Shown: positions 7,156 to 63,128 of the stretch, in pieces
Numbering within the stretch: the first letter of the stretch is position 1
Layout of the letters: the number at the start of each line of letters is the position of its first letter
DNA from: a phage
Direction: 5' to 3' (one strand)
Sequence record: PV357171.2
DNA: 64,000 nucleotides
The notes under the pieces: generated by a model
Told to the model about the DNA's origin: nothing
What the model saw: only the letters and a program-made list of their open reading frames with translations
The model's database searches: none
Made by a program: the position numbers and the translations under genes

Positions 7156-7470
7156 GTGGATCGAGCATTAAGACGCCATCACCGGCAACGTGTGAAGAAC
7201 AACCGCAAGAAGTATTGGACAGTCTTTCCACATGAAGAAAGCCCTAAGCGATTAGGTATTATCACTACTACTCCTTGCATCTGTTCTTGCTGGATGTGTG
7301 GGAACCCTCGCAAATATTATAAGAATAGTAAAGCAGGTATGAAAACCTCGGAGATCAGGAAAATGGGAGCAATGATTATGGGCATCTCAAATGATGAATT
7401 TGATGGCTTTGTAGGATTCGGAGAAGGAACTAGCTCAGGCTGTTTCGAATATGAACTCCCCGATCTGTGA
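7156..7470 (+). CDS. hypothetical basic protein (GTG start)
   Basis: 104 aa; AGGAG 6 nt upstream of GTG; an alternative 51-aa ORF from ATG 7074 overlaps. Confidence 0.45.
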   Translation: MDRALRRHHRQRVKNNRKKYWTVFPHEESPKRLGIITTTPCICSCWMCGNPRKYYKNSKAGMKTSEIRKMGAMIMGISNDEFDGFVGFGEGTSSGCFEYELPDL

Positions 7471-7481
7471 TTAACAACAAA

Positions 7482-7515
7482 CCCCAGCTATGGAATAAGT
7501 AGTCTGGGGTTTTTC
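7482..7515 (+). terminator. rho-independent terminator
   Basis: CCCCAG...CTGGGG hairpin followed by TTTTTC. Confidence 0.5.
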
Positions 7516-9251: not shown

Positions 9252-9532
9252 TTGTTTCTCCATTTGCTCTTTGGTTCGTCATTGGATCTGTGGTTGCTAT
9301 TTACAGTCTAATAGATGATTTATTCATCTCCAAGAATAAAGATGTAATATTATACGTTATACATAAAACTCGACCGTTAGATCTGCCACCTCTTGATGAC
9401 AAAACATTACTCAGATGTGCTAGATCTGTGATATTTATTGTGGATATTCTTCTAGGCCCAACATCTGTGTTTTTCTTTTATAGAAAAACTCGTAATATGA
9501 AAAAATTTAAAGCTGAAATGCAGAATACTTAA
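9248..9532 (+). CDS. hypothetical membrane protein
   Basis: 94 aa; hydrophobic N-terminus; ATGA overlap with upstream stop. Confidence 0.5.
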   Translation: MIVSPFALWFVIGSVVAIYSLIDDLFISKNKDVILYVIHKTRPLDLPPLDDKTLLRCARSVIFIVDILLGPTSVFFFYRKTRNMKKFKAEMQNT

Positions 9533-9642
9533 AGAACTCGCGTAGGACCGAGTTGCGTCACCTGCAACTGTTACGGATAAGGGAGTCGTGCCCCTTAGTG
9601 CGGTAAGTGGTGAGGTGGCTGCTAGCCCTAACTGGAGATAAT

Positions 9643-9987
9643 ATGACTATATTACTAATTCTTGTTACAACTTGGTTTTTAATCGGTGCTGGATATGCAA
9701 TAGCTATTATTAGACATTTGGATGAACATTCTGCTGAATGGTTTGTTAAATATCTACGCATTGATGATCAAGAACAGAAGTTTAAAGATGAAAAGCAGAA
9801 AAAAGCAGTAAATAATATGACAGCCAAAGAATGCTTGTTCTACATGCGTATTGTAGGGTTCTTTGGACTATTAGTTGCTGGCCCAATTGGTTCTACCATT
9901 GCTCCATATAAAGAAACAGTTGCTGACATCAAGTTGTGGAGAAATGCAGGGGTACTACGCAAAGCTAGAGAAACTAATATTACATAA
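9643..9987 (+). CDS. hypothetical membrane protein
   Basis: Internal ATG after GGAG chosen as start; two hydrophobic segments. Confidence 0.45.
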   Translation: MTILLILVTTWFLIGAGYAIAIIRHLDEHSAEWFVKYLRIDDQEQKFKDEKQKKAVNNMTAKECLFYMRIVGFFGLLVAGPIGSTIAPYKETVADIKLWRNAGVLRKARETNIT

Positions 9988-10032
9988 GATTGACACTAAG
10001 TCAGCTTACTAGCAAAAGCAAATAATGACAAA

Positions 10033-10068
10033 GCCCAGCCTGCACTTTTGCGACTGGGCTATTTTTAT
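10033..10068 (+). terminator. rho-independent terminator
   Basis: GCCCAG...CTGGGC hairpin followed by TATTTTTA. Confidence 0.5.
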
Positions 10069-10081
10069 AATAAAATTTTAG

Positions 10082-10110
10082 TTGCTTAGATGCCCAAACT
10101 TTTGTATAAT
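10082..10110 (+). promoter_or_regulatory. sigma70-type promoter (TTGCTT-N17-TATAAT)
   Basis: Hexamers with 17-bp spacer upstream of ORF 10142. Confidence 0.6.
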
Positions 10111-10141
10111 ATGTTTATAGATTGAGGCAAGAGGATTAAAT

Positions 10142-10840
10142 ATGAGGATTATTTCTAAGTTCGCCGATGTGTATGATTTGCAGAACAGTTTGTTCGACCC
10201 AGATCGTGTGTGGGAACGTAAAACTGAGGAGTTGCTGGTTAAAGTAACCGATGATGCAGAAAAGAATATTGTGCATACTCGCCAGGTATTTCGTGATGGT
10301 TCGCTATCTTTCCGTGGTGATTTCGAATACTTCGTAAACCCCCTATTTGTTGCAGGTGAAGTTTACTGGTTACATGAGCTGTACTGCTGGCATCCAGCAT
10401 TTAGCTTCAAAACGTTCGACCTCGACACTATGTTCGATAAAATGGAAGAGATGGGATTGCATGCTCGCTCTTACTTAATGGATAAGAGTCGTGGAGATGT
10501 TCGTGAAACAATGCGTGATCTGCTCGCTGAAGCAAAACCTAAAGCAGAACGTATCTTATCCGAACTGCGTGTACCGATTGCATATGTGAAAGGTATTAAA
10601 AAGAACGATAACGATGATGTTCGTAACTTCGTAATTCAGACTAACATTCGTTTCCATCAGTCCGGTATTCCGTGGCAGGAAATTGAAAGTAACTTATACC
10701 GTTTACACCAAGTTCTCGAACAGTATATCTTCGGTGTACTAGGAACTGGTGAGCCTGATATGATTAAAGTATCAGATAAAGACAGGTTAGCAGCGCATGG
10801 ATTTGATACAAAAACTTCTTTCAGGAATATGGCACGGTAA
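10142..10840 (+). CDS. hypothetical protein
   Basis: 232 aa; AAGAGGA Shine-Dalgarno. Confidence 0.6.
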   Translation: MRIISKFADVYDLQNSLFDPDRVWERKTEELLVKVTDDAEKNIVHTRQVFRDGSLSFRGDFEYFVNPLFVAGEVYWLHELYCWHPAFSFKTFDLDTMFDKMEEMGLHARSYLMDKSRGDVRETMRDLLAEAKPKAERILSELRVPIAYVKGIKKNDNDDVRNFVIQTNIRFHQSGIPWQEIESNLYRLHQVLEQYIFGVLGTGEPDMIKVSDKDRLAAHGFDTKTSFRNMAR

Positions 10841-24572: not shown

Positions 24573-25034
24573 CAAGAATTTTCACTTGTCAAGCTATTTT
24601 GCCCCATTTTGCTAATAAAATTTTACTTTTTCTGCACCTATCTCAAATTTCCCCAAATTATCTCAACTCTTCCCCAAAATCCCCGCAAATCAGGTGCTCC
24701 GCACCAATCCTGCGCCTACTTCCTTCTAGTCCCAAAATTTCTCTCACTCTCTCATCCTCTCCTCAAACCTATACAATCACACACCCTCTCATCGAAGTCA
24801 TAAAAATCTTGTCGGATTCGCACATCTCAACACATGTCGGATTTGCACATACTCTAGCTAATCCCACAGGATTCGAACGCAGTTCGTGATTGCTGGAGTT
24901 TTTGGGAAAATTCATTGTCGGATTTGCACACTATAAAAATTTTTCGGGTCGGATTTGCACACTACCAAAAATTGTCGGATTCGCACATACACGCCCACGC
25001 GTAATCCATGGGGGCAAATGTCGGTTTTGCACAA
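24297..25034 (+). repeat. nine direct copies of 15-bp motif GTCGGAT(T/C)TGCACA (iteron-like array)
   Basis: Copies at about 24297, 24433, 24468, 24811, 24836, 24917, 24948, 24974 and 25020, all same orientation. Confidence 0.7.
24595..24795 (+). repeat. about 200-bp polypyrimidine (C/T-rich, G-poor) tract on the + strand
   Basis: Strong strand asymmetry with repeated CCCCAAA(A)T units. Confidence 0.6.
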
Positions 25035-25059: not shown

Positions 25060-25255
25060 CCTGAATGCGAATAAAAATAAGAATCATTCTCATTTAAAAA
25101 GTGGAATGCGAATGAGAATCATTATCATTTAGAAAACGGAATGAGAACTATTCAAGAAGTGAAATGATTCTCATTTAAAAAGTGGAGTGATTATCGATTA
25201 GCTAGTGAAATGCGAATGATAATGATTCGCATTTAAAAACGGAAGTGAGAAACAC
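25060..25255 (+). repeat. four degenerate tandem units sharing (C/T)CATTTA(A/G)AAA(GT/C)GGA(A/G)TG and GAATGCGAATGA cores
   Basis: Units read at about 25089, 25124, 25168 and 25228. Confidence 0.5.
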
Positions 25256-34557: not shown

Positions 34558-34789
34558 TCACCTTTGCCCGAAATCTCTTCCGCGACGCCCGAGATCCATC
34601 CGACCACTCCCGCTCAAACTCCGCACGTTTCTCGTCAAACTTCCGCTCCCTTTCCGCAATCTTCCGCTCCCTTTCCGCAATCTCCCGCGATACTTCCGCA
34701 GTATACTTACGATGCTTGTTAATAGCCGCAGTCATTCCGAAAACTCCCGCAAGTACCCCGATAATAAAAGCAATTATAATACTAAACAT
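34544..34789 (-). CDS. hypothetical membrane protein with charged repeat tail
   Basis: 81 aa; N-terminal transmembrane helix; REIAERERKIAERERK repeat. Confidence 0.45.
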   Translation of the reverse strand: MFSIIIAFIIGVLAGVFGMTAAINKHRKYTAEVSREIAERERKIAERERKFDEKRAEFEREWSDGSRASRKRFRAKVSDEE

Positions 34790-39629: not shown

Positions 39630-40268
39630 ATGGGTCGACAAAAGCTAACAATAAAAGATATAAATACTAGATTAGCTGATCGTGGAATCCAAATTGTCGG
39701 TGAATATGTAAACCAGCGTACAAAAACAGTATTTAGATGCCAGAGAGCACACGTTTGGGAAGCAACACCACATTCTGTACTTCATATGAGGAGAGGTTGT
39801 CCACACTGCTCCAATAATACAATATCGTTAGATGAAGTTAGTAACAGAATATCTAATATAGGGTATACTCTGTTAAGCAGCTATACTAATGCTAAAACAA
39901 AACTACATCTACGTTGCAATAATGGGCATGACTGTTTCATTACCCTAGATGGATTGACTCAAGGTAAAAGATGTCCTTATTGTTCTCTTAAATGGGAAAA
40001 TGGCGGATTCCTCTATATCATGTCCTCCTGCAGAGGTACTAAAGTAGGCATAAGCTTATACCCTGAGAAGCGGCTGAACGAGGTTAAAAGAGAATCTGGA
40101 TTTTCTGACATATACTTGTTCACCGTGTATTATCTGCCGGATAGAGAGACTGCTTTAGATTTAGAGAAGGAAGTTCACAGAAAATATTATAATAAAAACT
40201 GTGGGTTTTCTAATTTTACAGGAAGTACGGAATTTTTTAATGTTGCTCCTGAAGATGCTTTCAAATAG
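39630..40268 (+). CDS. putative homing endonuclease with zinc-ribbon N-terminus and T5orf172/GIY-YIG-like C-terminus
   Basis: 212 aa; CPHCS and CPYCS pairs, then GGFLYIMSS...GTKVGIS...EKRL resembling the T5orf172 pattern. Confidence 0.45.
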   Translation: MGRQKLTIKDINTRLADRGIQIVGEYVNQRTKTVFRCQRAHVWEATPHSVLHMRRGCPHCSNNTISLDEVSNRISNIGYTLLSSYTNAKTKLHLRCNNGHDCFITLDGLTQGKRCPYCSLKWENGGFLYIMSSCRGTKVGISLYPEKRLNEVKRESGFSDIYLFTVYYLPDRETALDLEKEVHRKYYNKNCGFSNFTGSTEFFNVAPEDAFK

Positions 40269-40494
40269 GGAAGCATTCTACAAGAAATATGAGCATGAGT
40301 TAGTTAGGGACGTGGTAACATTGTGCCAGCACCATCACCAATTATTACATAAGGTTTACACAAAAGAACCTCCTTTATTTTCTGCTAATAAGCAAAAAGT
40401 GTGGGTTCAAAAGCAGAAAGACAAATTACAGAATCCTCAAGAAAAGACACAAGTCAAGACTGAAACAAAATCAGGATTCGCAAGGTTCTTATAA
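40201..40494 (+). CDS. hypothetical protein (uncertain; overlaps neighbours)
   Basis: 97-aa track ORF overlapping the 3' end of 39630..40268 and abutting the portal start. Confidence 0.25.
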   Translation: MGFLILQEVRNFLMLLLKMLSNREAFYKKYEHELVRDVVTLCQHHHQLLHKVYTKEPPLFSANKQKVWVQKQKDKLQNPQEKTQVKTETKSGFARFL

Positions 40495-41594
40495 TGGGTT
40501 TTAAAAGCTGGATTACTGAAAAGCTAAATCCGGGTCAACGTATTATAAGAGACATGGAACCAGTTAGTCATCGCACTAACCGTAAGCCTTTTACCACTGG
40601 ACAAGCCTACAGTAAAATTGAGATTCTCAATAGAACTGCTAATATGGTTATAGATAGTGCGGCGGAGTGTTCTTATACTACTCTCTTAAATGTACGACCT
40701 AATCCATTCATGGATATAAGCACATTCCGTAGACTTGTAGTCACTGACCTACTTTTTGAAGGTTGTGCATACATCTATTGGGATGGCACATCGCTTTACC
40801 ATGTCCCTGCTGCACTGATGCAAGTAGAGGCAGATGCCAATAAGTTTATCAAAAAATTTATATTTAATAACCAGATAGACTATCGCGTAGATGAGATTAT
40901 CTTTATAAAAGATAACAGTTACGTGTGTGGCACAAATTCTCAAATTTCTGGACAATCTCGCGTTGCTACTGTTATTGACTCTCTTGAGAAGCGTTCTAAG
41001 ATGCTTAACTTTAAAGAGAAATTCCTCGATAACGGAACTGTGATTGGTCTTATTCTTGAGACGGATGAAATCCTGAACAAGAAATTGCGTGAGCGTAAAC
41101 AAGAAGAATTACAACTAGATTATAATCCTAGTACTGGTCAGTCCTCTGTCCTGATAGACTTTAAGGAAGACATCGAAGGATTTAATAAATCCATCTGTCT
41201 AGCCTTTGGTGTTCCGCAAGTGCTACTTGATGGCGGTAATAATGCGAACATTCGACCAAACATCGAATTGTTCTACTATATGACTATCATTCCTATGCTG
41301 AACAAGCTGACTAGTTCTCTTACTTTCTTTTTTGGTTATAAGATTACTCCTAATACTAAGGAAGTAGCTGCATTAACACCAGATAAAGAAGCTGAGGCTA
41401 AACATTTAACCTCATTGGTTAATAATGGTATTATGACTGGTAACGAGGCTCGTTTAGAGCTGAACCTTGAACCTTTAGATGATGAGCAGATGAATAAGAT
41501 TCGTATTCCTGCTAACGTTGCTGGTTCTGCAACAGGTGTATCTGGTCAAGAAGGTGGTAGACCTCAAGGTTCCACCGAGGGAGATAAAGAATGA
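40494..41594 (+). CDS. portal protein
   Basis: 366 aa between terminase and protease/capsid genes; true start may lie upstream. Confidence 0.6.
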   Translation: MGFKSWITEKLNPGQRIIRDMEPVSHRTNRKPFTTGQAYSKIEILNRTANMVIDSAAECSYTTLLNVRPNPFMDISTFRRLVVTDLLFEGCAYIYWDGTSLYHVPAALMQVEADANKFIKKFIFNNQIDYRVDEIIFIKDNSYVCGTNSQISGQSRVATVIDSLEKRSKMLNFKEKFLDNGTVIGLILETDEILNKKLRERKQEELQLDYNPSTGQSSVLIDFKEDIEGFNKSICLAFGVPQVLLDGGNNANIRPNIELFYYMTIIPMLNKLTSSLTFFFGYKITPNTKEVAALTPDKEAEAKHLTSLVNNGIMTGNEARLELNLEPLDDEQMNKIRIPANVAGSATGVSGQEGGRPQGSTEGDKE

Positions 41595-42088: not shown

Positions 42089-42721
42089 ATGACACAAGCT
42101 GCTATTGACTATAACAAGTTAAAATCAGCACCCGTTCATTTAGATGCTTATATTAAATCTATTGATAGCGAATCCAAAGAGGGCGTTGTAAAAATCCGTG
42201 GATTCGCTAATACAATTAGTAAAGATCGCGCTGGTGATGTAATTCCTGCTTCTGCGTGGAAAACATCTAATGCACTTGCTAACTATATGAAAAACCCGAT
42301 TATTCTTTTCGGACACGATCATCGTCGTCCAATCGGCAAGTGTATTGATCTTAACCCTACTGAAATGGGTCTCGAAATCGAATGCGAGATCTATGAAAGT
42401 TCTGACCCGGCTATCTTTTCTCTAATTAAAAACGGTGTACTGAAAACTTTTAGTATCGGATTCCGCTGCCTAGATGCAGAGTGGGATGAAGCTACTGATA
42501 TATTTATTATTAAAGATTTAGAACTATACGAAGTTTCGGTAGTTTCTGTACCTTGTAATCAGGACTCAACGTTCAATCTCGCTAAGAGTATGAATGGTCA
42601 TGATTATACTGAATGGCGTAAATCTTTTACTGCAATAAGTTCTAAAGCTGTCCCAGCTCAAGAACGTAATCTTTCTGAACTAGAAAAACTTGCGATAGCT
42701 TTAGGCTACGTTAAAGAATAA
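42089..42721 (+). CDS. prohead maturation protease (HK97 family)
   Basis: 210 aa directly upstream of the capsid gene; conserved His/Ser-containing segments. Confidence 0.65.
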   Translation: MTQAAIDYNKLKSAPVHLDAYIKSIDSESKEGVVKIRGFANTISKDRAGDVIPASAWKTSNALANYMKNPIILFGHDHRRPIGKCIDLNPTEMGLEIECEIYESSDPAIFSLIKNGVLKTFSIGFRCLDAEWDEATDIFIIKDLELYEVSVVSVPCNQDSTFNLAKSMNGHDYTEWRKSFTAISSKAVPAQERNLSELEKLAIALGYVKE

Positions 42722-42738
42722 CGGAGAATTATTTAAAA

Positions 42739-43296
42739 ATGACTATTGATATTAATAAGCTGAAAGAAGAACTTGGTCTGGGTGATCTGGCTAAATCTCT
42801 GGAAGGTCTGACCGCTGCTCAGAAAGCTCAGGAAGCTGAACGTATGCGTAAAGAGCAGGAAGAAAAAGAACTGGCTCGTATGAATGACTTGGTTTCTAAA
42901 GCAGTTGGCGAAGATCGTCAGAAACTGGAACAAGCTCTGGAACTGGTTAAGTCCCTGGATGAAAAATCTAAGAAGAGCGCAGAACTGTTTGCACAGACTG
43001 TAGAAAAGCAGCAGGAAACTATTGTTGGTCTCCAGGACGAAATCAAATCTCTGCTGGCAGCTCGTGAAGGGCGTTCCTTCGTCGGTGATAGTGTGGCTAA
43101 AGCACTGTACGGTACTCAAGAAAACTTTGAAGACGAAGTGGAGAAACTGGTTCTTCTGTCCTACGTGATGGAAAAAGGTGTATTTGATACCGAACATGGT
43201 CAGAGACACTTGAAAGCTGTAAACCAGTCTTCTTCTGTAGAAGTTTCTAGTGAAAGCTATGAAACTATTTTCTCCCAGCGTATCATCCGTGACTGA
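42739..43296 (+). CDS. major capsid protein precursor, N-terminal part (scaffolding delta domain and start of N-arm)
   Basis: 185 aa coiled-coil-rich segment ending ...FSQRIIRD then stop; the frame continues in 43250..43972. Confidence 0.6.
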   Translation: MTIDINKLKEELGLGDLAKSLEGLTAAQKAQEAERMRKEQEEKELARMNDLVSKAVGEDRQKLEQALELVKSLDEKSKKSAELFAQTVEKQQETIVGLQDEIKSLLAAREGRSFVGDSVAKALYGTQENFEDEVEKLVLLSYVMEKGVFDTEHGQRHLKAVNQSSSVEVSSESYETIFSQRIIRD

Positions 43297-43972
43297 GGTT
43301 AAAGGTGCTCTGACTGAAATCCACTTCAGTACTTACAAACTGGCTGCTAAGTCCTTCATTACTGATGAAACTGAAGAAGATGCAATCTTCTCCCTGCTGC
43401 CGCTGCTGCGTAAACGTCTGATTGAAGCACACGCTGTTTCTATCGAAGAAGCGTTTATGACTGGTGATGGTACTGGTAAACCTAAAGGTCTATTGACTCT
43501 TGCTAGCGAAGATGGTGCTAAAGTTACTACTGAAGCTAAAGCTGATGGTTCTGTTCTGGTAACTGCTAAGACTATCTCTAAACTGCGTCGTAAACTGGGC
43601 CGTCATGGTTTGAAACTGTCCAAACTGGTACTGATTGTATCTATGGATGCTTACTACGATCTGCTGGAAGATGAAGAATGGCAGGATGTTGCTCAAGTTG
43701 GTAATGATGCTGTTAAACTGCAGGGTCAGGTTGGTCGTATTTATGGTCTGCCGGTTGTAGTTTCTGAATACTTCCCAGCTAAAGCGGTTGATAAAGAGTT
43801 CGCAGTTATTGTTTATAAAGATAACTTCGTAATGCCACGTCAGCGTGCTGTTACTGTTGAACGTGAGCGTCAAGCTGGTAAACAGCGTGATGCATACTAC
43901 GTTACTCAGCGTGTTAACCTGCAACGTTACTTTAGTAATGGCGTTGTATCTGGTGCTTACGCTGCATCTTAA
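43250..43972 (+). CDS. major capsid protein, HK97-fold C-terminal part (other frame)
   Basis: 240 aa; ...EEDAIFSLL...IEEAFMTGDG... pattern typical of HK97-fold capsid proteins. Confidence 0.65.
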   Translation: MKAMKLFSPSVSSVTEVKGALTEIHFSTYKLAAKSFITDETEEDAIFSLLPLLRKRLIEAHAVSIEEAFMTGDGTGKPKGLLTLASEDGAKVTTEAKADGSVLVTAKTISKLRRKLGRHGLKLSKLVLIVSMDAYYDLLEDEEWQDVAQVGNDAVKLQGQVGRIYGLPVVVSEYFPAKAVDKEFAVIVYKDNFVMPRQRAVTVERERQAGKQRDAYYVTQRVNLQRYFSNGVVSGAYAAS

Positions 43973-43993
43973 TACAGGCTTTTCAGCCGATAA

Positions 43994-44017
43994 GGAGAGC
44001 TTCGGCTCTCCTTTTTT
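43994..44017 (+). terminator. rho-independent terminator
   Basis: GGAGAGC-ttcg-GCTCTCC hairpin followed by TTTTTT. Confidence 0.6.
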
Positions 44018-58332: not shown

Positions 58333-58755
58333 ATGAGTACTGAAAATAGAGTTATAGACTTAGTAATAGATGAGAAAGTACCATATGGTTTAATGATGCA
58401 GTTCTTAGATGTTGATGATAGTACTTATCCACCTACAAGTACCCCTGTTAACTTAACTGGGTATTCTCTAAGGGGTACTATAAAAAATAGCCTAGATGAG
58501 AATGCGGAGATATTGGCATCCTTTACTACTAATATTATTGATGCTGCTCAAGGGGCTGTAGCTATAAGTTTACCAGTAGAATCTGTGGAGAATATAGGAG
58601 CTAAAGCATCTAAAGATAGAGATAAATATAATCCTCGTCAGCGATTCGCAGGATACTATGATATAATTATGACTAGAGATGTTATAGGATCTGCAATTAG
58701 CTCCTTTCGTATAATGGAGGGTAAAGTATTTATCAGTGATGGGGTAACTAAATAA
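58333..58755 (+). CDS. collar protein (p132-like)
   Basis: 140 aa immediately upstream of the fiber gene. Confidence 0.5.
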
Positions 58756-61103
58756 TGGCAGTAACTACTAAGATTATTGTACAACAGATACTAAATATTG
58801 ATGATACTAAAGCTACTGCTAGTAAATTTCCTAGATATACAGTAACTCTTGGTAACTCTATTAGCTCTATTACTGCAAGTGAGTTAGTATCATCTATTGA
58901 GGCCGCAGCTAAGTCTGCTGCAGCTGCAAAAGACTCTGAAATAGCTGCTAAGACTTCAGAGCTTAATGCTAAGAACTCTGAACAGGAAGCTGCTATTTCT
59001 GCTGGAGCTTCTGAAGCCTCTGCCACTCAGTCCGCTACATCTGCTACTCAATCTGCAGAATCAGCGGATAGATCTGCAGAATCAGCCGCAGCAGCTAAAG
59101 TATCAGAGACTAATGCGAAAGCTAGTGAAACTAAAGCTAAAACATCCGAGACTAATGCAAAAGCCTCAGAAACTAATGCAAAGTCTAGTGAAACCAAAGC
59201 TAAAACCTCGGAAACTAATGCTAAAACTAGTGAAACCAACGCTGCTGCTTCCGCTGCTGCTGCAAAAATTAGTGAGACTAATGCTAAGACTAGTGAGACT
59301 AATGCTGCTGAGTCTGCTGCGTCTGCTGCCGATTCTAAAGGTTTTAGGGATGAAGCAGAAACATTTGCTGCACAAGCGGCTGCCTCTGCTGCGGCTGCTA
59401 AAGTATCCGAGACTAAGGCAAAAACATCAGAAACTAATGCAAAGTCTAGCGAAACTAAAGCTAAGGCTAGTGAAACAAATGCTGCTAGTTCTGCAACTTC
59501 AGCTAGTCAATCAGTAACCACTATTCAAGGTCTAAAATCTGACGTTGAGGAATTAAAATCTGATACTCAAACCATAAAGAATAGTGCTGTAACTGAGACA
59601 ACAGCTTTAAAAAATCAAGCGGCTACTTCTGCAACTAATGCTGCTGCATCTGCTACTGAAGCGGGAAAACAAGCTACTAATGCTGCTAATAGTGCTAATA
59701 GTGCTAAAACTGAGGCTGACCGTTCAAAAACTGAAGCTGATCGTGCTAAAGCTGAGGCAGATAGATCTGAAGCCGCTATTAATGATACTCCTGAGCTGCA
59801 GCCGTTACCTGATGTATGGATACCTTTTAATGACTCCTTAGATATGATTACCGGCTTCTCACCTAGCTATAAAAAGATTATAATTGGTGACGATGAAATT
59901 ACAATGCCTGGTGACAAGATTGTTAAGTTTAAACGTGCATCAACTGCGACATATATTAATAAATCCGGCGTTTTCACTGTTGCGGGAATTGATGAACCAC
60001 GTTTTGAACGTGATGGTCTGCTTATTGAGGGGCAAAGAACAAACTATATTCTTAACTCCCTTACTGTTTCTAAATGGGGTGCATCTTCGTGGTTGACAAT
60101 CTCATCAAGCGGAGTTGATAGCTTTGGTTTTACATATGGCCGATTTGATGTTCAGTCTAGTAATGTTGGAAGCACAACATCCGGTAATATTGCTGTGGCT
60201 CCTTCACCAAGAGCTTTTGACGTTACTGGTGATGAGAAGTATTGCACTATATCTTGCCGATGCAAATGTGAATCAGACATAGATATTCGATGCAGACTCC
60301 GATTTGAGAACTACGACGGGACTGCCACATCCTTCATTGGCGATGCGTACATGAATATGCAGACTTTAGATATAACAACTACAGGTGGAGCAGCAGGTAG
60401 AATTACAGCTAAAGCGGTCAAGGATAATGCTACAGGATGGATATTTTTTGAAGCGACAATAAAAGCACTAGATACCGAAAATATGATTGGTGGCCAAGTT
60501 CAGATAGCACCATCTCAAAGAGTTGGATCTTTTGCAGATGGCGATCATATTATTGTTGCAACGCCGCAATTTGAAGGTGGGGCGACTGCATCGTCATTCA
60601 TCATATCTGATACAGTTGCAGCGACAAGGGCTAGCGATATGGTGACAGTGCCAATTAAAAACAATCTTTATAGCTTACCTTTTACGGTTCTTTGTGAGGT
60701 ACATAAGAATTGGTACAAAACACCGAATGCAGCACCGCGAGTTTTTGATACTGCAGGTCATCAAACTGGAGCAGCAATCATTCTTGGATTTGGTTCTTCA
60801 ACAAATTACGATGGGTTTCCATATTGCGATATTGGTGGGTCTAACCGACGTGTTAACGAAAACGCATCGCTTGAAAAAATGGTTATGGGGATGCGTGTGA
60901 AAGAAGATCAGATGACATGTGCGATAAGTAATGGGCGTATATCTAGTGAGACAAAGACAACTTGGACTTATATTCAAAGCTCTGCAACCATTCGTATAGG
61001 TGGTCAGACAACAACAGGGCAGCGTCATTTATTCGGGCATGTCAGAAATTTTCGAGTATGGCATAAAGCATTGACTGACCGTGAATTGAAGGAGTCGGTA
61101 TGA
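58755..61103 (+). CDS. L-shaped tail fiber protein (LtfA-like) with Ala/Ser/Thr-rich repeat stalk
   Basis: 782 aa; N-terminus [14 protein letters not shown]...SISSITAS; tandem SETNAK-type repeats. Confidence 0.6.
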   Translation: MAVTTKIIVQQILNIDDTKATASKFPRYTVTLGNSISSITASELVSSIEAAAKSAAAAKDSEIAAKTSELNAKNSEQEAAISAGASEASATQSATSATQSAESADRSAESAAAAKVSETNAKASETKAKTSETNAKASETNAKSSETKAKTSETNAKTSETNAAASAAAAKISETNAKTSETNAAESAASAADSKGFRDEAETFAAQAAASAAAAKVSETKAKTSETNAKSSETKAKASETNAASSATSASQSVTTIQGLKSDVEELKSDTQTIKNSAVTETTALKNQAATSATNAAASATEAGKQATNAANSANSAKTEADRSKTEADRAKAEADRSEAAINDTPELQPLPDVWIPFNDSLDMITGFSPSYKKIIIGDDEITMPGDKIVKFKRASTATYINKSGVFTVAGIDEPRFERDGLLIEGQRTNYILNSLTVSKWGASSWLTISSSGVDSFGFTYGRFDVQSSNVGSTTSGNIAVAPSPRAFDVTGDEKYCTISCRCKCESDIDIRCRLRFENYDGTATSFIGDAYMNMQTLDITTTGGAAGRITAKAVKDNATGWIFFEATIKALDTENMIGGQVQIAPSQRVGSFADGDHIIVATPQFEGGATASSFIISDTVAATRASDMVTVPIKNNLYSLPFTVLCEVHKNWYKTPNAAPRVFDTAGHQTGAAIILGFGSSTNYDGFPYCDIGGSNRRVNENASLEKMVMGMRVKEDQMTCAISNGRISSETKTTWTYIQSSATIRIGGQTTTGQRHLFGHVRNFRVWHKALTDRELKESV
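59097..59505 (+). repeat. tandem about 18-nt repeats inside the fiber gene (encode ~6-aa SETNAK/SETKAK units)
   Basis: Repeated AGTGAAACTAA(A/T)GC(T/A)AAA-type units read in the sequence. Confidence 0.5.
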
Positions 61104-61375
61104 AAGACTTAACTATGAAATTTAAGGACAAGAAAGCATTTGAGGATTTTCTTGTGGTTATTGATTGGGAAGGTAATGAAACTTTGCAAAATCAAATAAT
61201 ACTTGATGTTATCGGATATACTTATACACAAACTGGTGGCTCAGAGGAAGAGCCCATATATACCCAGAATGGGGGATATTATGTGAACGTAAGGGTTATT
61301 GATGATTCAATTGACTTCACTCAATACAGTGATCATAGTGTTATTCTTGAACAGTCTCTTAGAGAGTGGGCATAA
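61100..61375 (+). CDS. hypothetical protein
   Basis: 91 aa; ATGA overlap with the fiber gene stop. Confidence 0.45.
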   Translation: MKDLTMKFKDKKAFEDFLVVIDWEGNETLQNQIILDVIGYTYTQTGGSEEEPIYTQNGGYYVNVRVIDDSIDFTQYSDHSVILEQSLREWA

Positions 61376-61384
61376 GGTTTTATA

Positions 61385-63128
61385 ATGGTAACTAAAACAG
61401 TAATTCCTACGGATATTACAAAACTTAAAAATGAGTCACTTAATAAAAATAATAACCTGAGTGACTTAGCAGACCGTGCAGCAGCCTGGCTAAATGTGCG
61501 TCCTATTGGGTCCACCCCTCTTGCGGGGGATCCTGTTGGGGGACTATGATGCCGCAACTAAACGTTGGGTAGAGAATAAGATTAACACTGGTACAGTTGG
61601 ACCCACTATGAATGGTGTTATGAACTACGGTGTTGGTGATTTCCACCTTCGAGATAGCCGTGCATACATTCAACCATACGAGGTGGTTTCTGATGGGCAG
61701 CTCCTTAATAGGGCTGACTGGCCGGAGCTTTGGTCTTACGCTCAAATGGTGGGGGCAATTAGTGATGCAAAATGGTTAGCAGATCCACATGAGAGAGGCA
61801 AATACTCAGTTGGTGATGGTCGAACAACCTTCCGTGTTCCTGATCGAAATGGTGTTCAATCTGGCTCCTTTAAAGGTCTTTTTGGACGTGGTGATAGTGG
61901 GGTAACTTCTAACCTCGGTAGAACGAATGAGTCTTCTGCTCCTAACTTAACTGCCTACTTCAGAACCGTAACTGATACGTCAATTATTGAAAATGATGCT
62001 GCAAGTGGTGCTGGATACCCATCCGAGGCATACCAAAAATATGCTCGGCTAAGCGCTATTAAAGAAGAGGCTGCACTAGAAATATACCCACGTAGATGGA
62101 ACTTTGATGCTTCTCGCCAATCTAGTGTATATGGGCGTTATGGTAATACAGATGAGATTACACCTAATAACTTCACCGGTGTATGGGTAATCCGGGCGTC
62201 TGGTGGTTTCGTTGCAGCAAATACATCTTGGAGTGTTATTAACGGCGATGCGACCAGACCAACAGACAGCACAAGAGTTGAATCAGGGAAAGTAAGCGTA
62301 GAATATAAGATTGGAACGGCTATTGAGGCGCAGGGTAAAGTCTATACTGCTGCAACAATGGGCGGGACATATTCTACCCAGCTCTCTGTTAAAAATGCCA
62401 CTACGGGTAAAGAGAAAGATATCAGCGTCACAGAAGATGGTGATCTGTGGTCTGACCGCTTTAAGGGTAGATTTGGCACCCGTATGGCTTGGAGTCAGAC
62501 CGGCTGGGTCTATGGCACATTTTCCCAAGCCAACCAAGCCATCGGTAACGACTACAGTTTCTACAGTATTCTTAGCGGCTCCCAAAGTTCAAGCTCGGGC
62601 TATAAAACTCATACCCATATTGGTCAAATCCATAATGACAATGGTTCATTTGCTGATAGCTGCTGGCATGTTGCAGGTGATGATGATAATAAATATGGTG
62701 TACGTTTAAAAATTCAGCCTAATAATAATAGTATTTATTTCTATTCTTGGTGGCCTAATGGTGCAGCAACCTATACTTTGCAATTAAATGCTATATCTGA
62801 TTCTCGCTTAAAGCATGATATTAAGGCTATAGATGCAACTAAATCCATCGAAATATTAAAAGGATTGGAATTCCAATCCTTTGTATATAATAACGATGAA
62901 AAATCTCGTATCCGACGTGGGGTTATTGCTCAGCAAGTAGAGACTATAGAACCACTTTATGTAAAAACTAGAAGATTTTATAATAATGATGGGGTAGAGC
63001 AAGAACAGAAGGAATTAGATACGACTCCAATGCTTCTTGACACTATGCATGTCGTGCAAGAACTTATAAAACGGATTGAATCTTTGGAAGAAGAACTCAA
63101 GCAATTAAGAGCAAACCTAGTGCAATAA
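61385..63128 (+). CDS. tail fiber protein (LtfB-like) with C-terminal intramolecular-chaperone (peptidase S74-like) domain; apparent frameshift in a G-run near 61520-61545
   Basis: Fiber-like N-terminal 54 codons from ATG 61385 end at TGA 61547-61549; body 61494..63128 is in another frame; C-terminus has SDSRLKHDI...coiled-coil typical of self-cleaving chaperone domains. Confidence 0.5.

Follow-up and report, generated by a model that had tools for sequence, protein, structure and literature searches.

The major capsid (pb8) gene of the phage DNA analysed here, a window of 64,000 nucleotides from sequence record PV357171.2, is split over two reading frames by the loss of 143 nt. In what is otherwise an ordinary T5-like (Markadamsvirinae) phage genome, this lesion belongs to a group of four linked gaps that affect the nickase, portal and capsid genes. 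The four gaps probably correspond to segments which were flagged by a vector-type similarity screen and then deleted from the record, that is, to a data artefact, and the living phage very probably does not have the capsid gap. The pattern of the losses points to a screen of the NCBI VecScreen type (+1/-5), with T5-like fragments in a synthetic construct as the probable trigger. An earlier note, made from the sequence alone, had described the capsid lesion; its linkage to the gaps in the nickase and portal genes goes beyond that description. The coordinates of the features are collected in Table 1.

Table 1. Features of the window, of the plasmid insert and of the other records with gaps at the same sites (reference coordinates are those of KS_S14)
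Feature	Position in window	Strand	Position in KS_S14	Remarks
Gap J1	40256..40258	+	40290-40527	about 237 nt missing
Portal (pb7) gene	40494..41594	+		366 codons vs 405; gaps J2 and J3
Gap J2	40679/40680	+	40950-41009	60 nt missing, in frame; portal residues 63-82
Gap J3	41154/41155	+		57 nt missing, in frame; portal residues 242-260
Capsid pb8 gene, 5' part, codons 1-185	42739..43296	+		ATG ORF; TGA stop 43294-43296, out of context
Gap J4	43293..43294	+	43681-43823	143 nt absent; codons 186-232 plus 2 nt
Capsid gene, 3' part, ~residue 234 to 458 plus stop	43297..43972	+		+1 frame relative to the 5' ORF
Insert pieces for J1			40283-40345 and 40467-40527	left and right ends of gap J1 in the window
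Insert piece for J2			40950-40968, 82-nt foreign payload, 40968-41009	whole of J2
Insert piece for J4			43686-43840	preceded by a 15-nt linker
J1 in nine carriers			40477-40514	37 or 38 nt
J2 in seven carriers			40950-41008	58-59 nt
J2 in STWB21 and CPphiVTCCBPA_418			40957-41006	50 nt
J3 in nine carriers			41485/6-41541	56-57 nt
J4 in SP1a, SP3 and Stp1				70 nt, 71 nt and 88 nt, respectively
J4 in GSP001, MET_P1-88, MET_P1-197_46 and STWB21				68 nt each

The 5' capsid ORF encodes 185 aa, ends in ...ETIFSQRIIRD and comprises the delta domain (scaffolding, residues 1-159) together with N-arm residues 160-185. The 3' frame, which carries ...VKGALTEIHFSTYKLAAKSFITDETEEDAIF... and, in the remainder of the protein, ...VKGALTEIHFSTYKLAAKSF..., is open from 43241 to its end at 43972 and is closed upstream by the TAG at 43238-43240. 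Both frames, as well as the TGA and TAG codons that delimit them, had been recognised in the earlier note and were confirmed by ORF reading; their two-frame look results from the cut itself, which takes out 47 codons and two further nucleotides. The same note had estimated that 90-140 nt had been lost along with a frame change, that about 411 codons remained and that no simple single-base error was involved. Alignment to T5-like relatives gives a slightly larger loss (143 nt), about 410 codons were counted (185 plus about 225, in different frames, instead of an uninterrupted ORF of about 458 codons), and a single-base correction is indeed unable to restore the gene.

In alignments to DT57C and KS_S14, the loss appears as a single clean gap immediately after 43293. 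In the T5-like records that match best, a query of 1301 nt (42700-44000) aligns in two pieces and stretches over 1444 nt; 435 of the 451 records matching this query cover at least 80% of it, and the 143 nt are missing relative to more than 430 T5-like genomes. The annotations fetched for the reference relatives each contain one capsid ORF of 458 codons. A comparable two-frame capsid gene was found only in the damaged records SP3, SP1a, Stp1, GSP001, STWB21, MET_P1-88 and MET_P1-197_46, and since these relatives are themselves damaged, they leave the earlier reading of the lesion unrefuted.

The gene has the sequence and the neighbourhood of pb8 genes: its nucleotide sequence is 94-97% identical to many Tequintavirus capsid genes, and the order of its neighbourhood (portal, decoration protein, protease, capsid, head completion) is that of T5. 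The 5' half aligns with residues 1-185 of the KS_S14 capsid protein with 94.6% identity (tblastn). With respect to the T5 pb8 precursor (HK97 fold, N-terminal delta domain; PDB 5TJT, 6OKB, 8ZVI), the two ORFs of the window are ~95% identical over residues 1-185 and ~234-458, but residues 186-232/233 are lacking and the frame is shifted, whereas the intact relatives have one ORF. Similarly, the PF05065 profile is matched by the 3' part of the window's capsid gene at positions 61-274 only, compared with 9-276 for the intact KS_S14 protein.

The chains of mature pb8 in the PDB begin at residue 160, so the first 159 residues correspond to the cleaved scaffolding domain. In the published map of the T5 capsid, the N-arm covers residues 164-191, the P domain residues 192-205, 245-306 and 407-451, and the E-loop residues 206-244 (PMC11313276). 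On the basis of this map, the J4 loss takes away the end of the N-arm, the P-domain strand 192-205 and 27 of the 39 residues of the E-loop (206-232); LQKELVVGALFEELPMSSK is an example of a peptide from residues 186-233 of the repaired capsid sequence. What is left of the gene shows no sign of decay, since dN/dS against the intact relatives is 0.03-0.14 in the 5' part and 0.08-0.22 in the 3' part (0.08-0.13 among the intact capsid references) and no extra stops or frameshifts of the kind expected in a pseudogene under relaxed selection were found in either half.

For the comparison of the whole window and for the gap coordinates, KS_S14 (LC788706), the closest overall relative, was used as the reference, and four clean offset jumps (J1-J4) were found within 3 kb. 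With J1, a homing-endonuclease-like gene (39630-40268) has lost its last 15 codons and an HNH nicking-endonuclease gene its first 66, a nickase remnant being left at 40255-40494, and J2 and J3 both fall in the portal gene. Among 731 homologues from a collection of ~15 billion proteins, the full-length portals other than those of gap carriers are all of 404-405 aa. The junctions are blunt, with a microhomology of 0-2 nt. Across the 64-kb window, all 35 of the other conserved KS_S14 proteins tested by tblastn are undisrupted. A frameshift-like region at 61385-61961 with respect to KS_S14 was discarded as a further lesion, being merely a different tail-fibre module, 99.9% identical to that of Salmonella phage SIA3lw.

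The gap sites are shared by nine other Salmonella T5-like records, which come from about five laboratories and three de novo assemblers and have their origin in India, China and Turkey: SP3 (MG387042/NC_048001), SP1a, Stp1, STWB21 (MW567727/NC_103643), GSP044 (OP394141/NC_108329), GSP001, MET_P1-88, MET_P1-197_46 and CPphiVTCCBPA_418. Three of these carriers (SP3, STWB21 and GSP044) have RefSeq entries too. GSP044 and GSP001 were found by means of a portal protein search, and Stp1, MET_P1-88, MET_P1-197_46, STWB21 and CPphiVTCCBPA_418 by a junction-centred search. The record of CPphiVTCCBPA_418 is labelled as a Corynebacterium phage.

These damaged records resemble the window in the four sites, in their blunt junctions and in the split portal, and most of them also in the split capsid, no J4 gap being present in GSP044 and CPphiVTCCBPA_418. 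They differ from it in the extent of the losses, as the window's gaps are larger at J1 (237 vs 38 nt) and J4 (143 vs 68-88 nt), and in the portal gaps, which are in frame in the window by chance (60 and 57 nt) and measure 58-59 and 56-57 nt in the carriers. The larger J1 and J4 gaps are explained by the closer resemblance of the window's sequence to the sequence type of the synthetic construct described below.

Neither common descent nor copying from an earlier record accounts for the shared sites. Shared ancestry is ruled out because in each inter-junction stretch every carrier is closest to an intact genome, and the carriers do not form a clade; between J1 and J2, for instance, the window shares 99.8% identity with T5_ev212 (LR597659), SP1a 99.8% with BB1 (MT843274) and GSP044 99.5% with KPP2018. 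Inheritance from SP3 as a mapping reference was also rejected, given that the window is ~30% divergent locally beside J1 and has a gene absent from SP3, and that the J4 gaps vary among the records. In the larger collections, 32 of 33 loci in IMG/VR are intact, the sole exception being SP3 itself; in the JGI metagenomes, eight contigs have an intact J3 sequence and none the junction; and the J3 gap occurs among the 731 portal homologues in GSP044 and GSP001 only. The exact junctions were searched for in IMG/VR, GTDB genomes and JGI metagenomes, with SP3 as the only hit.

Several properties of the carriers are those of functional phages. SP3, whose genome was assembled with IVA, has been described as a normal siphovirus on imaging (PMC6812015), and STWB21 was obtained after three rounds of plaque purification and assembled de novo with CLC; its burst size is 161 PFU per cell, and its virions give a major band of ~36 kDa (PMC9441917). 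This band has the size of normal mature pb8, the capsid fragments predicted from the record being of 23 and 19 kDa, and the complete STWB21 genome does not contain the missing segments or genes in a second copy. Portal and capsid genes are essential. The genomes of the functional phages can therefore not be those given in the records.

When the 3.7-kb reference region was compared with plasmids, one match was obtained: pCfFELIX689.1 (NZ_CP137704.1), a 6.3-kb plasmid of the Citrobacter freundii isolate FELIX_MS689. It is a synthetic patchwork of sacB, IS1, bla fragments, cat, ermC and polylinkers, in which a T5-like composite sits between polylinker sites. With VecScreen scoring, the 75 kb of KS_S14 give only five matches to this plasmid, located at J1, J2 and J4, and the window gives none; the plasmid holds pieces that are absent from the window, so that window and insert are complementary. 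The J3 segment (57 nt) is absent from pCfFELIX689.1. In the literature, no account was found of a known VecScreen/T5 problem or of the origin of this plasmid.

The extent of the gaps is also related to this insert. The intact parent genomes of each lineage were compared with it by BLAST under VecScreen parameters (reward 1, penalty -5, gap costs 3/3). For the BB1 type, the J1 match predicted in this way is 40477-40514 (38 nt), and eight carriers show 37 or 38 nt. At J4, the prediction is 43714-43784 (71 nt) for the BB1/T5_ev212 type, compared with 71 nt in SP3 and 70 nt in SP1a; 43696-43784 (89 nt) for the L019 type, compared with 88 nt in Stp1; and 43693-43760 (68 nt) for the Epseptimavirus type, exactly the gap of GSP001, MET_P1-88, MET_P1-197_46 and STWB21. 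Megablast and default blastn give extents that differ from the gaps (e.g. 51 nt at J1 and ~150 nt at J4). Edges that track the break-off of a +1/-5 alignment to a foreign sequence are a computational, not a biological, signature.

The correspondence has its exceptions. Similarity of the missing segments to the synthetic sequence was found at J1, J2 and J4, J3 being uncovered, and the edges follow the screen-scoring extents except at J2 in the BB1-type carriers and at J4 in GSP044. The former lack 59 nt at J2, where merely 19 nt match the insert under +1/-5, and the latter keeps its capsid segment although the score against the insert would be 47. In the window, the J1 loss includes 121 nt between the two plasmid-matching pieces, and J4 begins 5 nt before the homologous stretch of the insert. 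To the right of J4, the window reads TGAGGTT and the insert GGTGAGGAAGTT; judging from this comparison, the right edge would fit a mismatch to the insert.

The removal of the segments in silico may be envisaged in three steps. The genomes would have been assembled correctly in the first place; a vector or contaminant screen, using an entry that contains T5-like fragments, would then have flagged short internal spans; and the flagged spans would have been taken out, with their ends closed up, ahead of annotation. Because the window is of almost the same sequence type as the construct, longer spans would have been flagged in it (the ends of J1, 60 nt and 143 nt), and at J1 the 121 nt between the two matches would have been deleted as well. 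Since the first carriers, of 2017, are probably older than the record of the plasmid, the entry actually used for screening must be an earlier relative of the pCfFELIX689.1 insert; the agent of the removal and the database entry behind it are inferred rather than observed. The absence of J3 from the plasmid, the date of the 2017 carriers, the capsid segment of GSP044, the BB1-type J2 and the left edge of J4 are the reasons for which this explanation is taken as probable and not firmer than that. As to the cause, the earlier note had proposed either an assembly artefact or a defective genome; this alternative is supported, a data artefact being preferred, although the cause is probably not an assembler error and looks like a deliberate removal of matches to a vector-like construct.

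Among the other explanations, it is unlikely that de novo assembly broke at, or skipped, the four places and that the contigs were then joined, with no similarity screen involved. Such a failure would be in keeping with the blunt junctions, with the draft or multi-contig state of the SP3, SP1a and Stp1 records, and with the mixed phage assemblies of 25-200x coverage in the Turkish study. However, IVA (SP3), CLC (STWB21) and probably SPAdes (GSP and MET_P1) would have had to go wrong at the same nucleotide positions, in lineages that share just 85-93% identity; a SPAdes workflow is described in the paper of the MET_P1 laboratory, and the laboratory that isolated the GSP phages used SPAdes according to its paper on a different phage. 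Furthermore, the window contains no tandem duplications as from end-to-end joining of contigs, and the failure of an assembler leaves unexplained both the presence of the missing pieces together on an engineered plasmid and the prediction of the edges by +1/-5 scoring.

More specific technical causes were also considered and rejected. The loss of a hypervariable "bubble" in mixed-strain assemblies does not agree with segments that are no more variable than their flanks, J3 being almost invariant, nor does polymerase jumping over hairpins agree with the ordinary folds of the segment DNA (z-scores of -1.3 to +0.8). The segments are not adapter-like, the J sites lying outside the 60 best of 135 Illumina/Nextera adapter-like sites in 75 kb, and, for E. 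coli as the host, the filtering of host-like reads was discarded, since none of 5,426 complete genomes of this species matches the 3.7-kb region. Relocation of the missing segments was not found in the window or anywhere in the STWB21 genome, and a 14-mer scan of the genome contigs gave chance matches only.

Real deletions in the packaged DNA, with defective genomes dominating the stocks as a result of hot spots or of recombination among co-infecting T5-like phages, are very unlikely. De novo assembly from Illumina reads has been reported by several laboratories, all ten carriers are Salmonella-type phages, and four of the six J1-J3 edges are at most 2 nt from a CTAG, a proximity only marginally significant once corrected for the post hoc choice of the motif. 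Nevertheless, the deletions would affect the essential portal and capsid genes in phages such as STWB21, plaque-purified, with 161 PFU per cell and with a capsid band of normal size, and the junctions are devoid of the microhomology expected of in vivo deletions in enterobacteria. In addition, the edges follow BLAST scoring against a foreign sequence, which no biological process would mimic, and neither metagenomes nor IMG/VR (SP3 excepted) nor run-level assemblies contain the junctions. Loss of restriction fragments is excluded, as the window retains 42 XbaI, 21 SpeI and 12 PstI sites intact.

An engineered T5-like phage, from which the four segments were removed in the laboratory and partly moved to a plasmid (e.g. 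as a test article for the detection of engineering), is highly improbable, even though it would account for the complementarity of the window's J1, J2 and J4 with the insert, both J1 ends included, for the fit between the window's flanks and the insert's sequence type, and for a plasmid that is plainly synthetic. J3 is not on the plasmid, yet the edges of J3 in the window equal those of the carriers deposited in GenBank in 2017-2025; nine unrelated published field isolates have nested gaps with edges predicted by similarity scoring; and the resulting phage would be left without a working portal and capsid gene. That the gaps are physical, whether in an engineered phage or, less likely, through sequence-guided deletion of the homologous phage DNA in cells carrying such a plasmid, is given a very small chance.

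Programmed recoding is known in phage structural genes, as in the -1 frameshift of T7 gene 10A/10B, the tail chaperone G/GT and the bypass of T4 gene 60, and the likeness of the window to these systems is one of appearance only (a structural gene in two frames), conservation in relatives and a shift signal being absent and a segment of an essential protein missing. That a programmed +1 frameshift of the ribosome, or translational bypassing, joins the two capsid frames has a practically negligible probability: their overlap over 43241-43293 makes a shift geometrically possible, but in more than 430 relatives the protein is encoded by an unbroken ORF of 458 codons, the fused product would still be short of 47 residues, most of the E-loop among them, ...CGT GAC TGA GGT... 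holds no recognisable shift site and no slippery motif is present in 43241-43296.

From the biological point of view nothing new is implied: the phage would have a normal T5-type capsid gene, a piece of which is missing from the record. In at least ten public T5-like records the nickase and portal genes are mutilated in the same way, as is the capsid gene in the majority of these records, with the result that capsid and portal phylogenies, gene counts, protein clusters and the assessment of therapeutic phage genomes are distorted by them. The analysis provides, as a by-product, a reproducible explanation for this set of damaged public T5-like genomes and, if false matches in a vector screen are confirmed as the cause, the screening entry could be fixed and the records of these phages corrected.

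The homing-endonuclease-like gene adjoining J1, the gap at the homing-endonuclease-like and nickase genes, has Pfam matches to T5orf172, MUG113, CapR and a zinc-finger domain. KS_S14, SP01 and T5_ev212 have the gene, and BB1, slur09, APCEc03, KPP2018, SP3 and the GSP phages lack it; its distribution is a natural presence/absence polymorphism.

Portal residues 15-20, at the N-terminus, and capsid residues 180-185, in the N-arm, share the hexapeptide QRIIRD; the capsid copy directly abuts the junction of J4, the gap in the major capsid gene. In the reference KS_S14 the two copies show no similarity at the DNA level.

As regards the engineered plasmid pCfFELIX689.1, an 82-nt payload (ATTCCACGGACTATAGAC...TTTAACGAGG) sits within the portal-derived piece of its insert, which also contains a 97-nt piece (CTGGATACTTCCCG...CGCCTGTTT); a 35-nt stretch of the latter had no exact match in IMG/VR.

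Positions of features in the window and in the plasmid
Feature	Record	Position	Remarks
Engineered insert	NZ_CP137704.1	2500-2933	minus strand
Imperfect tandem repeat	window	24639-24678	period 20 nt
Imperfect tandem repeat	window	25069-25147	period 35 nt
Imperfect tandem repeat	window	34636-34700	period 21 nt
Homing-endonuclease-like gene	window	39630-40268	between terminase and nickase genes
QRIIRD, portal	window	40536-40553	
QRIIRD, capsid N-arm	window	43276-43293	

Among the other records with gaps, SP3 (MG387042.1) has an additional 650-nt stretch 3' of the capsid gene (locus 9491-10142) and a divergent decoration-protein segment (locus 7228-7512). Neither is matched in the window or in KS_S14, and they appear to be natural differences between modules rather than damage. 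Gaps J1-J3 are present in the 41-kb PQ773600.1, named 'Corynebacterium phage CPphiVTCCBPA_418', whose sequence is Epseptimavirus-like and of T5 type; either its host label or its completeness claim is probably wrong.

The three short imperfect repeats lie in intergenic or early regions of the window. Further tandem repeats, of 21, 42 and 63 nt, occur at 59093-59758, in a stretch of about 590 nt (59075-59664) which is extra relative to KS_S14. Identity to Salmonella phage vB_SalS-SIA3lw (PP094244) is 99.9% in the tail-fibre module (58700-62300), whereas for the head module no record exceeds about 96-97%, a disparity which shows that the genome is a mosaic and suggests that the host of this phage is Salmonella.
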